DNA of 28,250 nucleotides from Promethearchaeota archaeon (lineage in GTDB: Archaea > Asgardarchaeota > Lokiarchaeia > Sigyniarchaeales > SOKP01): assembly GCA_019894975.1 (NCBI GenBank), contig JAGXNO010000043.1, positions 1 through 28,250 on the forward strand, read 5' to 3'. Shown here one piece after another: positions 4,203 through 19,472 of the stretch. Numbering within the stretch: position 1 is the stretch's first letter; the number at the start of each line of letters is the position of its first letter. The position numbers and the translations under genes were made by a program. Under the pieces are notes generated by a model. That model made no database searches. It had not been told where the DNA came from and was given only the letters and a program-made list of their open reading frames with translations.

Positions 4203-5234
4203 CTATTTTAACATAGAACTGTTTTTCTTTATAGCTGCTTCTGCTTCATTTATTACCCTTTTAATGATATCATTGACGTCGTCAATACTATCAATAACAC
4301 CTATTGATTGTCCGAGTAACACTGCTCCGGTTGTAGTATCTCCTTTATAAACCCTATCATAAGCACCAGCATCTCGTAGTAATGCCTCAGGTGTTAAGGA
4401 TTTCTCATAAGCAATCATGTCTTCTTTAGTTTGGGGTGCTGGATGTGCTAAAGCATATTCATTTTTATATAAACGAATAGGACCAAATGATCCTGTGAAG
4501 AGATCCGTATCTTGTGGTTTACCAGGTGGAACTAAGGCTTTATAATTTTCATGGAACTCGCTTTGTTTGGATGCAATAAATCGTGAGCCCATAGCTATTG
4601 CTCCTGCGCCAAGAGATAAAGCTGCAGCTAAACCTTCTCCTGAAGCAAATCCTCCACACGCAATCGTAGGTAAATCAGGAAAAAGTTTTCTAATTTGTTG
4701 TAGTAGTACAAGAGTACTTACTCTCTCATATGATTGATGCCCTCCTCCTTCACCACCAGTAGCTACTATTCCGTCGACCTTAGCATCTACACATTTCTGA
4801 GCTAACCATACGGCTGGTGCTACATGAAAATGTTTTACTTCCGATTTTTCCCGTAATTCTTGAAAATTCTTAGAAGAAGGTAAAATCTTTGAAGAACCCG
4901 CAGAAGTTAACCAGTAAACACACTGTTCTCTCATCTTAGGATTTTCCATAACCATTTTAGGTACATCAGTACACATTTCTTTGACTCCCCGATTATTTCG
5001 AGAGGTTAGGAAATTAAGGCCAAATGGCTTGTCTGTGTGCTCAATCATGTATTCTATGCTTTCTATGTGTTCTTTTACCGGATCTGTTCCAGTTATATTA
5101 ACATTTGACAAAACACCCAGTCCCCCTGCCTCACAAACTGCTAAAGCTAGATCCCTTGTATAAAAAGGACCCATAGGGGCACTAAAAATAGGGTGCTTTA
5201 TTCCAAACATTTTTGTTATGTTAGTTTCGATCAT
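4203..5234 (-). CDS. Nitronate monooxygenase / FabK-like enoyl reductase (second paralog)
   Basis: GIKHPIFSAPM, TDKPFGLN, GGEGGGH, IACGGFASGEGLAAALSLGAGAIAMGSRF, LGQSIG. An SD-like AGGTGA lies upstream on the minus strand (tcacct at ~5243-5248). Confidence 0.92.
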   Translation of the reverse strand: MIETNITKMFGIKHPIFSAPMGPFYTRDLALAVCEAGGLGVLSNVNITGTDPVKEHIESIEYMIEHTDKPFGLNFLTSRNNRGVKEMCTDVPKMVMENPKMREQCVYWLTSAGSSKILPSSKNFQELREKSEVKHFHVAPAVWLAQKCVDAKVDGIVATGGEGGGHQSYERVSTLVLLQQIRKLFPDLPTIACGGFASGEGLAAALSLGAGAIAMGSRFIASKQSEFHENYKALVPPGKPQDTDLFTGSFGPIRLYKNEYALAHPAPQTKEDMIAYEKSLTPEALLRDAGAYDRVYKGDTTTGAVLLGQSIGVIDSIDDVNDIIKRVINEAEAAIKKNSSMLK

Positions 5235-5323: not shown

Positions 5324-8218
5324 TTAATAAAGATAATACTTGATTTTCTTATGGTGCCACATTCGAACTAAAAGAAAAACAGTAATAAATGCTATAGTTA
5401 TAAGGAATGAATAGAATAGGTTCCAATTAGAAATAAACCAAATTAATACGATTCCACTAATTATTATCAGAAGATAATAATAAAAGAACTGTTTTCTGAC
5501 TTTATTTATCTCCCAGATAAAGAGACAAGAACCAGAAATTACCCCAATATTGAATCCAATATCTAAAAATGGTTCTAGATTACTATACTCCATAAAAGCT
5601 AATGACACTGCTCCAAACAATCCAAGAATTAGAAAAAGCCAAAGTTTCTTATTGGTTTTTTCATCAAAAATCGTTTTTCTTATATGACTAAAACCATTTC
5701 GATACAATGCCCAAAATACAAGTGCAATACTAAAAACTTTCAGATAAAAATGACCAAAGAACAGATCTACGTTATCTAAAAACGTTAAGTTAATGTTATA
5801 CCCTACTTCTACGAATAGATTTAGCATCCAATCTGGAGCAGAGAACTCAAATAGAAAATTAATAGATGGTATAAATTCAATTGAAGTCACTATTTTTAAT
5901 AATGCCCGTAAAGCCCACACAAAATAGAATATTACGAATATATCAAATATTTTAATTAATTTTTGGGAAAAAAGGATGGTTGATACTTTGAAATAACTTG
6001 AAATTGTAGCAATTATACAAGTACCAATTAAGATATTTATAAACAGAGCTAAACTAAACAGTGCCCAAATTGTTATGTCAAGTGTTTGGGAATTAATTCT
6101 AAATGATAAAAATGTTAATATGCCCAAAAATGCCACAATACTAGCATAAGTTAAAGGCTTTATTATATTAGAGATTTTAAATCGTTTTATTCCAGTTTTT
6201 TGTAATTTTTGCGCAGTTTCCTCTTGCTTGCTCAATCCTGAAAGTGCCATTAATCTATCATATTTAATACCTTTTGATTTCAGAGCTAATGCCTTGAATT
6301 TCTCGGAAGCTTTTTTTTGTAAAGGGTTTTTTGATACATTTATAGTTTTCAAGTGAGAAAGCACACCTAAAGAGTTTGGAAGATATCTTATGTTGTTATC
6401 TTCCAAATTTAAAATCTCCAACAATTCGAGACTGCCAAATGTATCAGGTAGATCGGTTAATTTGTTGTTATAGAGATCTAAATACATAAGCGATTTGAGA
6501 TCCCCAAATGATTCAGGAAGATGTTTCAACTCACACGAACTTAAATCTAATTCTTGAAGAGAGACCAAATTCCCAAAGTTATGCGGTAATTCATTCAAAC
6601 TCCCCTTGTAAAAAAAAACCGGTGCCTCTAAATAAATTTTCTGTAGATTGGTTAAATTACAAAAAGATTCTGGAAGTCTTTTAATTGGATTATTTTCTAA
6701 ATGAATTTCTTGAAGAAATTTAAGGTTTCCAATTGATTCAGGTAAAGATACTAAAGCATTATTTTCAAGATGTAGAATTTTTAGGTTCTTCATATATTCT
6801 ATAGATTCTGGAAGGAGTGCTAAATCAGTTAATGCTACATCTAGCATTTCAAGTGATTCTAATTCAGGAATAAAACGTGGTAATCTGACTAATTGATTAG
6901 AGCGTAAACCTAACTTTTTAAGAGATTTAAATGAAACTATTGATTCTGGGAGTGTGGTTAAAAAACAGTTAAACAGCCCTAAACCTACAACACTCCCATT
7001 TTCGATTGCGATACCAAATGCGGTCCCATCAATTTCAAATAATATTGGGATACCAGATTCTTCTATTTTTTTGCTAATAGCTTGATAATATTTATTCTGT
7101 ATACTTAGTTTTTCAATAATTAATTGTTCTAAATCTTTTAATGCTTCTCTCTCGCTTTGTCCTACATAATAGTCCTTATATTTATGGCTATCTTCAGTCA
7201 ATTCATATGAGTCACCTTTACTTCTTGAAATGATTATCGAATATATTATCTCATAAAACAAATCATCAATATTTTCCCCAGTTTTGGCGGATACTAATAA
7301 ATGTTTAATAAGAAATTTTTTAGCAATCTTATCAATATCATTTAATCTTGAATTTAAATGCCCATCACTTAAATCACTTTTCGTAATTGCTAAAATAATA
7401 GGGATTTCGTAAGAAACTGATTCAACAATTTCATTATACCATTTTTCGATATTTTTCAAAGGTTTTGGGTTCGAAATATCTAAAACAATTAAAGCAGCAT
7501 CAGCAAATTTATAAATCTTTTCTTTAGAAGGAGAAATTTGGCTTGATAATCCACCTGTATCCCAAATTGCCAAATTCATAATAATATCGTCATCAATGTT
7601 TACAACCTTTTTGACTACCTTAAATCCTGATGTAGATTTCAAATCGCTACCAAAATTTTTCTCAGCAAACCGATGAATTAATGAAGATTTACCTGCTTTA
7701 TAATCTCCTAATACTGCAATCTTAATTAACAGTTTTTCTATCGGGTGTTCAATCTTTTTTACTTTTGAATACAACTTAATAGTACTCGGAGTTTCTACTT
7801 CGAGATTTTCTGATTTCTCAGAGCCTTCAGATGTTAGTCTTTTAATTTCTCCTGCAACATATACGGAATAAATTTTTAAATCAATATCCATTGTTTCTTT
7901 TTCTGTTATTACAAATATCATAGAGTACGAATCTGTTGAACAAAATACTAATTTATTTTTTTGGTTTTCTTTAATTAATAGAAAATCATTTTGTTTTCCA
8001 TATTCATTATCAATCTCATGAATAAATTGATCTATAAGGCTATGATGGACATTAGATTGAGCTTCATTAAGATCAGGGTTATTAAAATAACTAAGGAGAG
8101 AATAATCTTTTCTCTCGTAAACTAAGATAGTCAAAATCCCACGAATATCTGTAACAAATTGCCTTAATAGCTTAATAAGTAAAGAGTTTTCCATTGATTC
8201 TCTTTCTAACCAATACAA
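5324..8218 (-). CDS. Multidomain protein: roadblock-like domain + Rab-like small GTPase + LRR array + multi-TM domain
   Basis: G1 GDYKAGKS (7708-7685), G2 KSTSG, G3 WDTGG (7564-7550), G4 TKSD, G5 SAK(TGENID). About 10 LRRs of 23 aa (LxxLxLxxNxLxxLPxxxxxL, ~6990-6320). About 8 hydrophobic helices (~6160-5350). The listed start at 8218 is TTG; the ATG at 8194 (MENSLL) may be the true start. Confidence 0.9.
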   Translation of the reverse strand: MYWLERESMENSLLIKLLRQFVTDIRGILTILVYERKDYSLLSYFNNPDLNEAQSNVHHSLIDQFIHEIDNEYGKQNDFLLIKENQKNKLVFCSTDSYSMIFVITEKETMDIDLKIYSVYVAGEIKRLTSEGSEKSENLEVETPSTIKLYSKVKKIEHPIEKLLIKIAVLGDYKAGKSSLIHRFAEKNFGSDLKSTSGFKVVKKVVNIDDDIIMNLAIWDTGGLSSQISPSKEKIYKFADAALIVLDISNPKPLKNIEKWYNEIVESVSYEIPIILAITKSDLSDGHLNSRLNDIDKIAKKFLIKHLLVSAKTGENIDDLFYEIIYSIIISRSKGDSYELTEDSHKYKDYYVGQSEREALKDLEQLIIEKLSIQNKYYQAISKKIEESGIPILFEIDGTAFGIAIENGSVVGLGLFNCFLTTLPESIVSFKSLKKLGLRSNQLVRLPRFIPELESLEMLDVALTDLALLPESIEYMKNLKILHLENNALVSLPESIGNLKFLQEIHLENNPIKRLPESFCNLTNLQKIYLEAPVFFYKGSLNELPHNFGNLVSLQELDLSSCELKHLPESFGDLKSLMYLDLYNNKLTDLPDTFGSLELLEILNLEDNNIRYLPNSLGVLSHLKTINVSKNPLQKKASEKFKALALKSKGIKYDRLMALSGLSKQEETAQKLQKTGIKRFKISNIIKPLTYASIVAFLGILTFLSFRINSQTLDITIWALFSLALFINILIGTCIIATISSYFKVSTILFSQKLIKIFDIFVIFYFVWALRALLKIVTSIEFIPSINFLFEFSAPDWMLNLFVEVGYNINLTFLDNVDLFFGHFYLKVFSIALVFWALYRNGFSHIRKTIFDEKTNKKLWLFLILGLFGAVSLAFMEYSNLEPFLDIGFNIGVISGSCLFIWEINKVRKQFFYYYLLIIISGIVLIWFISNWNLFYSFLITIAFITVFLLVRMWHHKKIKYYLY

Positions 8219-19004: not shown

Positions 19005-19472
19005 ATGGAACCGTATTCAGCTTATAATATAAAAAGGAAAAAAAGGAAAATCCATAATTCTATAAATTTTGATATTATTTTAAAAAAAGTCTTCAAGAGC
19101 CAACCTGGTATTAAAAAAGTAATTTTAGTAGATAAAACGGGGAAGACTATTGCAAGCGTATCGAAATTTTCTTATTTTTCAGTTGCTGTAGATTCTATCG
19201 GAGCTACTGTGAGTGCAATCTTTTGCGCAAGCGAAGAGCAAGGAAAAAATCTTGAATTAGGAAGATTAGAAATAATCACTTCAGAATTTGAAAATGGAAA
19301 AATAATTGCATCTAATTTTTGTTCAGATGCAGTTCTCACTTTAATTTGCGATTCTGATCTTAATATTGGTTTAATTAGGCTTGTTTTAGCAAGAGCTGTA
19401 AGTGAAGTGAAAGATAATTTTCTATTAAAATTTTCAAACACTTTAGATTTTTATGATTTTTCAGATTTGTAA
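19005..19472 (+). CDS. Roadblock/LC7 (MglB-like) domain protein
   Basis: GIKKVILVDKTGKTIAS, IGATVSAIFCASEEQGKNLELGRLEIITSEFENGKI, AVLTLICDSDLNIGLIRL form a typical roadblock pattern. Confidence 0.9.
   Translation: MEPYSAYNIKRKKRKIHNSINFDIILKKVFKSQPGIKKVILVDKTGKTIASVSKFSYFSVAVDSIGATVSAIFCASEEQGKNLELGRLEIITSEFENGKIIASNFCSDAVLTLICDSDLNIGLIRLVLARAVSEVKDNFLLKFSNTLDFYDFSDL

Follow-up and report, generated by a model that had tools for sequence, protein, structure and literature searches.

Replacement of the catalytic glutamine by leucine impairs GTP hydrolysis in Ras (Q61L) and in Rab proteins (Rab5 Q79L). Natural small GTPases without this glutamine are also known and include Rap (Thr61), Rnd, RhoH, RGK, and kappaB-Ras. 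To our knowledge, the Asgard archaea possess dozens of Rab-, Arf-, and Rag-like GTPases, and we know of no GAPs or GEFs established for them. The engineered change has been used likewise for an Asgard GTPase, as HodArfR1 Q72L (bioRxiv 10.1101/2024.02.28.582541).

In the Asgard roadblock-GTPase fusions described for MK-D1 (Tran et al. 2024, PMC10933270), an N-terminal roadblock domain and a small GTPase are found in one chain. The HAS-GTPases (such as MnmE, FeoB, and YqeH) carry a conserved hydrophobic residue at the position of the catalytic Gln, and in FeoB such a G domain is joined to a polytopic membrane domain. The ROCO proteins (LRR-Roc-COR; LRRK2 and C. tepidum Roco) combine a Ras-like G domain with LRRs, and a roadblock fold is tied to a small GTPase in both MglA/MglB and Rag/Ragulator. 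In this report, we analyze a gene from a 28,250-nucleotide stretch of DNA (the window) of a Promethearchaeota archaeon, the product of which has features in common with each of these systems. The terms "LRR" and "Q61" are absent from the main text of PMC10933270, and its section on Asgard small GTPases contains no such membrane form. In the literature, we found nothing specific on Asgard LRR-GTPase membrane proteins or on Asgard GTPases that lack the catalytic Gln by nature. We regard the protein as a probable new addition, from archaea, to an already known type of atypical GTPase.

The Gene and Its Protein

The features of the gene are given below, with residue numbers counted from the favored start codon.

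5324..8194, minus strand, whole gene from ORF analysis (956 amino acids plus stop; ATG at 8194, stop at 5324-5326)
5324..8194, minus strand, overall layout of roadblock domain, Rab-like G domain, LRRs, and polytopic membrane domain, in that order (Pfam Ras at 100 bits, Roc, and LRR families)
7820..8194, minus strand, N-terminal roadblock/LC7-fold domain, residues 1-125 (AF2 fold, Foldseek, family profile, distant homologs)
7220..7729, minus strand, Rab-like small GTPase domain, residues 156-325 (Pfam Ras, 1.1e-28; Foldseek)
7708-7685, minus strand, G1/P-loop GDYKAGKS, with Tyr165 and Lys166 at the positions of Ras G12 and G13
7633-7631, minus strand, switch I Thr188, equivalent to Ras T35, invariant
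7561-7550, minus strand, G3 motif DTGG, Asp212-Gly215, invariant
7502..7561, minus strand, switch II, residues 212-231, conserved alternative motif DTGG[LF]xSQIxPxK[ED]KI
7549-7547, minus strand, Leu216 (TTA) at the position of Ras Q61 and Rab5 Q79, Leu or Phe throughout the clade
7540-7538, minus strand, Gln219, three residues past Leu216, usually Gln but Arg in five relatives
7384-7373, minus strand, G4 motif TKSD, Lys and Asp invariant
7291-7283, minus strand, G5 motif SAK, Ser302-Lys304, outside the range first annotated
6275..6994, minus strand, LRR region, residues ~401-640 (Pfam LRR_14, LRR_8, LRR_4, and LRR_1)
5327..6187, minus strand, C-terminal polytopic membrane domain, residues ~670-956, ~8 TM helices, orphan, mean entropy 0.95 bits

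A database search recovered 23 full-length relatives of the 956-residue protein. The initial annotation had started the protein at TTG 8218, which is less likely than ATG 8194 because the closest orthologs are also 956 residues long and start at the equivalent Met. The fused N-terminal roadblock domain that it had proposed was borne out. When folded alone with AF2, this region adopts an alpha-beta-beta-alpha-beta-beta-beta-alpha arrangement (pLDDT 84), and its best Foldseek matches are MglC, MglB, LAMTOR, and the Rag C-terminal domain, with TM values of up to 0.74. The family profile matches solved Roadblock/LC7 proteins (E 1.4e-4), and the Pfam cutoff for Robl_LC7 is passed by distant full-length homologs. 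The assignment is based on this profile, the distant homologs, and the fold; the protein's own N-terminal 150 residues returned no match in Pfam, and a Foldseek search with the two-domain model (roadblock plus G domain) returned Rab matches only.

The G domain matches Pfam PF00071 with 100.3 bits against a cutoff of 21.6, with G1, the switch I Thr, DxxG, [NT]KxD, and SAx in order. Its best solved relatives are Rab11 and Thor-Rab, and its Foldseek matches are Rab8 and Rab11 (TMt 0.75-0.79), with Q-to-L Rabs (9ikq and 9mhg) present among the structural matches. The domain is Rab-like by its best matches only and does not qualify as a Rab in the strict sense. It is internal, the protein ends without a Cys prenylation motif, and the RabF motifs (RabF1-F5, with WDTAGQE and YYRGA among them in Rab proteins) are only partly recognizable (IWDTGGL and YKFAD). 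The Roc model of Pfam gave 68.6 bits on the same domain, below the Ras model. Membership in the ROCO family is ruled out by the absence of COR after the Roc-like domain: no COR family of Pfam is found in the protein, and the 95-residue stretch 326-420 has no match at E 5. Only ~75 residues separate the G domain from the LRRs, which follow the G domain here and precede it in ROCO proteins.

The protein belongs with the Asgard roadblock-GTPase fusions, and a full-length phmmer search matches RB-GTPases of ~320 residues. Compared with these, it has acquired LRRs and an orphan membrane domain of ~8 TM helices. The membrane domain is the most conserved region of the protein by mean column entropy, yielded no Pfam match in a permissive scan at E 5, and gained no usable relative from a look-up in the Atlas. 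No match to Pfam FeoB_N was found in the protein. In the Rag proteins, the roadblock domain is C-terminal to an Arf/Rag-like G domain, whereas here the order is reversed and the best matches of the G domain are Rabs, not Rags. MglA, with a G3 of the form TxxGQ and a catalytic Gln of its own, differs in lacking the G3 Asp, which is present here (DTGG, followed by Leu).

The gene neighborhoods of three orthologs contain no conserved partner gene. The NMO and EamA neighbors are common to close relatives only, and no conserved adjacent gene that could serve as a dedicated GAP is found.

Leucine or Phenylalanine at the Catalytic Site

The initial annotation reported a natural equivalent of Q61L, encoded by a TTA codon at 7549-7547, and the codon is read there exactly. 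Leu216 is assigned to the Ras Q61 position because, in the HMMER alignments with Rab11, Thor-Rab, and Ypt7, WDTGGL falls opposite their WDTAGQ. Among ~80 Ras-like domains in the window's own genome, the residue at this site was found to be Gln in 62, Glu in 10, and Leu in 2. The alignment with orthologs, in which Gln would have spoken against a conserved change, gave Leu or Phe and never Gln. One or the other residue is found in all 24 database relatives, with identity down to 36%, and in 34 of 34 relatives that share the roadblock/Rab-like G/LRR/~8 TM architecture. Gln is found in 28 of 28 of the closest soluble roadblock-GTPase paralogs, which form the sister clade. Given that only 2 of the Ras-like domains of the genome have Leu here, we take this pattern to exceed chance. 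An independent scan of species genomes gave Leu or Phe in 8/8 full-length matches and Gln in 21/21 short paralogs. If HAS-GTPases are defined broadly, by a conserved hydrophobic residue where the catalytic Gln would be, the 34 proteins are among them.

The 34 Leu/Phe rows constitute one clade (SH-aLRT 96.9) when the columns of switch II are left out of the tree. Because this clade is nested among Gln-bearing rows, the replacement of Gln by Leu or Phe is judged from the tree to have happened once. Leu/Phe marks one clade of Asgard membrane proteins (labeled Promethearchaeota or Hermodarchaeota) that derived once from Gln-carrying, soluble roadblock-GTPases. The sister RB-GTPases (~320 residues) are soluble and have the catalytic Gln and NKSD, whereas this clade has Leu/Phe and mostly TKxD; the first residue of G4 is T28/N3/S3 in the Leu/Phe clade versus Asn in 28/28 of the sister clade. 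The loss of Gln was accompanied by the active-site changes V191F, I213T, R224K, F227I, and N271T. The G4 change N271T could shift the affinity for nucleotide, in a direction that is not predictable from sequence.

Residues G163, G168, K169, T188, D212, G215, K272, D274, S302, and A303 are invariant among the 34 relatives. Within the P-loop, where G163, G168, and K169 never vary, position 165 is Tyr in 20/24 and position 166 is K18/Q4/N1/R1. The residues for binding Mg-GTP and for sensing the gamma-phosphate are thus all invariant. They span G1, switch I (Thr), G3 (DxxG), G4 (Lys and Asp), and G5 (SAK), so that binding of Mg-GTP is predicted to be retained. The initial annotation had described G1 as intact, which holds for binding but overlooked Tyr165 and Lys166, which stand where Ras has G12 and G13. 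G5 is intact as stated, with S302 and A303 invariant, and G4 does read TKSD. The departure of G2 from xTIG is not a sign of degeneration: Thr188 is invariant and Gly190 nearly so. The range originally given for the domain, 7379-7708, is slightly imprecise, in that it ends within G4 and omits G5.

These data bear directly on the reading that the domain is a dead pseudo-GTPase that binds no nucleotide, or that Leu216 is an artefact (a private mutation or a sequencing error). The noncanonical G3 and G4 residues of one sequence are all that speak for it. The invariance of G1, the G2 Thr, DxxG, the G4 Lys and Asp, and G5 in 34 relatives speaks against it, as does the occurrence of Leu/Phe in independent NCBI, ENA, JGI, and Logan assemblies, and we consider it hardly credible. 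A pseudo-GTPase without nucleotide binding was rejected on the invariant G1 Lys/Ser, G4 Lys/Asp, and G5. A private mutation or sequencing error was rejected on the recurrence of the same state in those assemblies and in species-representative genomes.

Switch II and Possible Routes to GTP Hydrolysis

Switch II had been described as degenerate. It is strongly conserved, with a mean column entropy of 0.72 bits versus 1.38 bits for the whole G domain, and within the G domain it is second in conservation only to the P-loop. It is one residue longer than that of Rab proteins, and in the AF2 model both switches are of low confidence.

It is possible, although less probable than the reading that we prefer below, that GTP is still hydrolyzed at a useful rate by a HAS-like logic. 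The Leu/Phe would then face away from the gamma-phosphate and another residue, for example Gln219 of switch II, would position the attacking water, with charge contributed by Lys166 or in trans by a dimer or partner. In GBP1 and atlastin, the P-loop position held here by Lys166 is occupied by a cis Arg finger. A bulky hydrophobic residue is strictly kept, as in HAS-GTPases (PMC2848588), switch II is highly conserved, and Gln219 is kept in 23/24 relatives of the entropy alignment. Lys is found at the third variable position of the P-loop in 18/24, and roadblock domains typically dimerize (MglB, LAMTOR, and the Rag C-terminal domain). Against this stand the variation at position 166 (K/Q/N/R) and the behavior of Gln219, which is Arg in five members and occurs widely even in the sister paralogs that have the catalytic Gln. 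Gln219 is for that reason judged to be ancestral, and from the alignment it is neither invariant nor a compensating change. This also weakens an earlier suggestion that the downstream Gln is repositioned by a register shift of the MglA/MglB kind. Activation of MglA relies on MglB bringing MglA's own Gln into position, and that Gln is missing in this protein.

The potassium route of the HAS-GTPases, which had been mentioned initially, is disfavored by the sequence. In the potassium-type HAS-GTPases, which are families of the TrmE-Era-EngA type, K+ is coordinated by the Asn of the P-loop (GxxNxGKS) together with a K-loop. The present protein has a Rab-like fold, Lys, Gln, or Arg where this Asn would be, and a switch I as long as that of Rab proteins. 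In MnmE, the substitution N226K lowered activity 72-fold (PMC2848588). A potassium-dependent mechanism was rejected on two grounds: Lys166 occupies the Asn position, and the alignment of switch I with Rab11, Thor-Rab, and Ypt7 is free of gaps, so that no K-loop insertion is present. The absence of the P-loop Asn and K-loop also counts against alternative catalysis.

The supply of a catalytic residue by the fused roadblock domain, also proposed initially, is disfavored by the sequences because lineages lacking this domain retain Leu. The domain has been lost in at least two lineages of the clade, with no roadblock ORF within 1.5 kb there, which makes it an unlikely general solution and likewise weighs against alternative catalysis. 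A homodimer prediction with two copies of residues 1-340, GTP, and Mg returned "no answer" with a score of 0.00 and weighs neither for nor against such a dimer. The separate roadblock protein encoded at 19005-19472 had been named for testing with the G domain. Its gene accounts for only one of the 15 roadblock matches that the window's own genome gave, and its synteny is not kept in orthologs; we rejected it as the designated partner on these two observations. The genome encodes ~13 free roadblock proteins, this one included.

A more specific proposal is that this Rab-fold GTPase hydrolyzes GTP without Gln by a route new to the Ras superfamily and gates the orphan 8-TM domain, as a counterpart of the FeoB logic that evolved independently. 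Such a route could use, for example, the P-loop Lys at the GBP/atlastin Arg-finger position and the conserved SQIxP of switch II. We regard this proposal as unlikely.

A Proposed Atypical Switch and Its Gln-Type Paralog

The reading that we prefer, to which we give about an even chance, is that the G domain is a slowly hydrolyzing, mostly GTP-loaded atypical switch. In this reading, the domain is Rab-like, binds nucleotide, and is competent to switch but has lost the catalytic Gln in cis. If it behaves as Ras Q61L and Rab5 Q79L do, its intrinsic, Gln-dependent hydrolysis would be strongly lowered and the domain would be mostly loaded with GTP in the cell. Engineered, GTP-locked Ras Q61L, Rab5 Q79L, Rab8 Q67L, and Rab1 Q70L carry the same change at the same structural position. 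Here, in contrast, the change is natural and clade-wide in archaea, with a remodeled yet conserved switch II. The domain would then serve as an atypical regulatory module, either slow-cycling or non-cycling, and the conserved alternative switch II may offer a GTP-state surface to the LRR/membrane part in cis or to a partner. Turnover of GTP, if any, would require a group supplied by a partner or by a different residue of the same chain, and neither K+ nor the fused roadblock domain would be involved.

HAS-GTPases hydrolyze GTP rapidly despite the hydrophobic residue at the Gln site, which is a counterpoint to a GTP-loaded domain. A Gln that had merely become dispensable should give a variable residue, yet strictly Leu or Phe is seen. 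This restriction points to a positive role of the bulky hydrophobic side chain, which fits an anti-catalytic lid and a retracted, HAS-like residue equally well.

The distribution of the two proteins is pertinent to another reading, in which the membrane protein would be a catalytically silent anchor. It would pair through the roadblock domain with the soluble Gln-type paralog (C33:24187-25140 in the window's own genome) or with a free roadblock protein, as an asymmetric, Rag-like pair in which the soluble subunit alone cycles. The Gln-type paralog is found in 38/40 genomes of the family and also in the window's own genome, LAMTOR and the Rag C-terminal domain are among the fold matches of the roadblock domain, and for MK-D1 there is a published prediction of Rag-like heterodimers joined by roadblock domains (PMC10933270). 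However, only ~9/41 genomes of the family were found to have the long Leu/Phe protein, and the short paralog is thus independent of the long one. Clade members without a roadblock domain exist, and synteny between the two genes is absent. We consider such a pair quite unlikely.

The finding by itself does not overturn a major view, and other GTPase families are well known to have lost the catalytic Gln naturally. It provides a natural contrast within single genomes between a widespread, soluble paralog with Gln and a membrane-fused derivative in which Leu/Phe has long been held. The paralog pair is tractable for biochemical and structural work under either reading. Should the derivative be GTP-locked, "atypical" GTPases that do not cycle would be older than eukaryotes; should it still hydrolyze GTP, the Rab fold would have a catalytic solution that is new.

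Organization and surroundings of the gene

The gene encodes a multidomain protein in which a Ras-family G domain precedes leucine-rich repeats and a membrane domain.

Features of the GTPase gene and its protein
8194 (ATG) to 5324-5326 (stop), minus strand: whole gene, 956 aa
7708-7685, minus strand: G1
7549-7547, minus strand: Leu216 (TTA), read directly from the sequence
7384-7373, minus strand: G4, TKSD
7291-7283, minus strand: G5, SAK
aa 158-320: Ras-family G domain (Pfam, 100 bits; Roc, 69 bits)
about aa 445-680: leucine-rich repeats (Pfam)
5327-6187, minus strand, aa 670-956: C-terminal polytopic membrane domain (~290 residues, hydrophobic)

The initial annotation had placed G1, TKSD, and the Leu codon correctly, as was confirmed by re-reading the positions; its range of 7379-7708 covers G1 and Leu216, and SAK falls slightly beyond it. 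The solved structures nearest to the G domain by sequence are Plasmodium Rab11, a Thorarchaeota Rab (7ezb), and Ypt7. Since IWDTGGL aligns with IWDTAGQ of these proteins, Leu216 is at the position of Ras Q61 and Rab5 Q79. Switch II is one residue longer than in Rab.

The N-terminal domain is a roadblock domain, as initially proposed, and the assignment is supported by the family profile, distant homologs, and the predicted fold. No Pfam match was obtained with the first 150 residues of the window protein itself; more distant proteins aligning over query residues 1-330 exceed the Robl_LC7 cut-off of Pfam. A profile from 27 family members matches solved Roadblock/LC7 proteins, dynein roadblock, LAMTOR3, and MglB. 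The AF2 model of residues 1-150 (pLDDT 84) has the order alpha-beta-beta-alpha-beta-beta-beta-alpha, and in Foldseek it is most similar to MglC, MglB, Ragulator subunits, the Rag C-terminal domain, and MK-D1 roadblock proteins (TM up to 0.74). Fusions of roadblock and GTPase domains were previously reported in the Asgard archaeon MK-D1 (PMC10933270). The C-terminal ~290 residues matched neither a Pfam family nor an Atlas cluster, and by sequence they constitute an orphan membrane module. This domain is the most conserved part of the protein (mean entropy 0.95 bits), with many near-invariant residues, such as those in the WALYRNG stretch.

In the window (4203-5234, minus strand) and next to ortholog P0005, which is 65% identical (L034:8592-9623), the GTPase gene is followed by a nitronate monooxygenase-like gene, and an EamA transporter gene is nearby in both. 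This synteny is confined to close relatives and has no evident functional link. Directly downstream of ortholog P0017, in one Logan assembly, four small-GTPase genes encoding 177-193 aa lie in tandem (L033:9700-12280); the window's gene has no equivalent array beside it.

The residue at the Q61 position and its origin

A search of 5.8 billion proteins returned 23 relatives with the same length and Pfam make-up, labeled as Promethearchaeota or Hermodarchaeota MAGs and as little as 36% identical over the first 340 residues. With the query included, the residue after WDTGG is Leu in 16/24 and Phe in 8/24. The initial annotation had allowed for a private substitution; with Leu or Phe in 24/24, the Leu is conserved. 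When 201 species-representative genomes from the phylum were scanned independently, the full-length protein was found in about 9 genomes (~9/41 of the window's family), none outside that family, and in only 2 of the 10 genomes from the window's genus. The short paralog (~325 aa, roadblock plus GTPase) was found in 38/40 family genomes and in 3/3 genomes of a second family. All 8 long matches with a readable G3 carry Leu or Phe, whereas all 21 short paralogs carry WDIGGQ with NKSD. In one genome of the same genus (G150), the ortholog L042 occupies two adjacent open frames (C243:54773-56170 and 56179-57615) of which one spans profile positions 1-466 and the other 476-954; a split gene, a stop, or a frameshift could explain the arrangement.

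Of the about 80 Ras-like domains in the window's own genome, 62 have Gln at this position, 10 have Glu, and 2 have Leu. The soluble Gln-type paralog of this genome (about 332 aa, roadblock plus GTPase; WDIGGQ and NKSD) lies outside the window at G000:C33:24187-25140. The 10 Glu-bearing proteins are standalone Rab-like paralogs that share the motif WDF[AG]GEERFRFLLP and form a second non-canonical G3 subfamily (e.g., L011, C11:8229-8723; L013, C131:117023-117490; L016; L018). The only other Leu is found in a ~234-aa open frame on G000:C117 (phmmer row C117_-_1_8092), a divergent small GTPase with LFGTPGLLRF and NKQD that is without the G3 Asp and MglA-like in that respect.

A maximum-likelihood tree was calculated from 79 G domains, with the 20 switch II columns excluded and standalone Rab-like paralogs as the outgroup; in it, one branch separates the 34 Leu/Phe sequences (SH-aLRT 96.9), in agreement with an earlier tree (support 99). 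The clade is nested within the Gln-bearing roadblock-GTPases. Three state changes account for 79/79 rows, and two of these are singletons (Asp in P0038 and Ile in P0050). The tree places the change from Gln to Leu/Phe at one origin, and because the 34 sequences are related, they represent one event with long retention rather than 34 independent observations. Although members of the clade are separated by path lengths of up to about two changes per site, only Leu and Phe occur.

Conservation of the switch and proposed routes to hydrolysis

The mean column entropy of the clade is 0.72 bits in switch II (aa 212-231), compared with 1.38 for the whole G domain and 1.60 for the part after switch II. 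This value and the consensus DTGG[LF]xSQIxPxK[ED]KI contradict the earlier description of switch II as degenerate. G163, G168, K169, T188, D212, T213, G214, G215, K272, D274, S302, and A303 are invariant in 24 sequences (in the 34-row comparison, 33 have Thr and 1 has Ile at position 213), and the invariant T188 is at odds with a degenerate G2. These residues cover all needs for Mg-GTP binding and gamma-phosphate sensing. Near the active site, the 34 clade members differ from 28 sister paralogs by V191F, I213T, R224K, F227I, N271T, and Y315E; the switch is remodelled rather than decayed. For practical purposes, a dead domain and an artefact can both be ruled out. Overlooked initially were Tyr165 and Lys166 of the P-loop, which correspond to Ras G12 and G13; an aromatic residue at 165 also occurs in the Gln-type paralogs and thus predates the loss of Gln.

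Several routes had been suggested by which hydrolysis could be rescued. The potassium route of HAS-GTPases requires a P-loop Asn and a K-loop, and the N226K mutation of MnmE causes a 72-fold loss of activity (PMC2848588). Here the Asn position is Lys166 (Lys 18, Gln 4, Asn 1, and Arg 1 across 24 sequences) and switch I is of Rab length, so this route is disfavoured.

Five orthologs of about 790-810 aa (P0022, P0023, P0024, G057:C42 (L036), and G104:C61 (L040)) are without the roadblock domain, which was apparently lost at least two times, and no roadblock-like open reading frame was found within 1.5 kb at the G057 and G104 loci. Because these proteins retain the Leu, together with the LRR-membrane part, it is unlikely that the fused roadblock domain generally supplies the catalytic residue. 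The precedent of MglB agrees, since MglB contributes no catalytic residue and positions MglA's own Gln.

A register shift of Gln219 is possible, but this residue is a weak candidate. It is Gln in 23/24 relatives, but P0010, P0031, and three genome matches have Arg, and a Gln at +3 is common in the Gln-bearing sister clade too (e.g., GGQxxQMAP); Gln219 is thus ancestral and not invariant. The standalone protein encoded at 19005-19472 (plus strand) is a true roadblock/LC7 protein (Pfam Robl_LC7 and MAPKK1_Int), but nothing marks it out as the partner, as the genome has 15 roadblock matches, this one included. No roadblock gene was found in the ortholog neighborhoods examined, and in orthologous contigs it is unlinked to the GTPase gene.

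Proposed function and classification

In Ras, Rab, Arf, and Asgard ArfR proteins, it is the cis Gln that positions the attacking water, and Q-to-L is used for blocking hydrolysis in Ras, Rab, and Arf. The same substitution serves as a hydrolysis block in Asgard ArfR (bioRxiv 10.1101/2024.02.28.582541), and Q-to-L Rabs are present among the Foldseek matches. The G domain is predicted to bind Mg-GTP and to take a GTP-dependent conformation, without a cis Gln for the water. Since Gln is absent where Q-to-L blocks these GTPases, we consider it an even prospect, by analogy, that the protein is an atypical switch that hydrolyses GTP slowly and is mainly GTP-loaded.

The conservation at position 216 suggests a positive role for a hydrophobic side chain, which may shield the gamma-phosphate or, as in HAS-GTPases, pack away from it. 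The strict Leu/Phe requirement is compatible with the latter, and alternative catalysis is for this reason a serious rival, though the less likely one. An asymmetric, Rag-like pair formed with the Gln-type paralog would be an attractive sub-hypothesis, though improbable in our estimation.

The protein belongs to the Ras-like superfamily and to the Asgard roadblock-GTPase fusions. It is a HAS-GTPase in the broad definition only and not of the potassium type; the lack of a COR domain sets it apart from ROCO proteins, and it is neither a Rag, an MglA, nor a strict Rab. No description of the clade or its architecture was found in the published literature searched. Naturally occurring loss of the catalytic Gln is familiar from other GTPases; the new elements here are the clade itself, the domain architecture of its members, and a clear-cut contrast between Gln and Leu/Phe paralogs. 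With the fusion of a soluble roadblock-GTPase to leucine-rich repeats and a membrane domain, the G domain of the GTP-loaded switch that we favor would have become a built-in regulatory or structural module.
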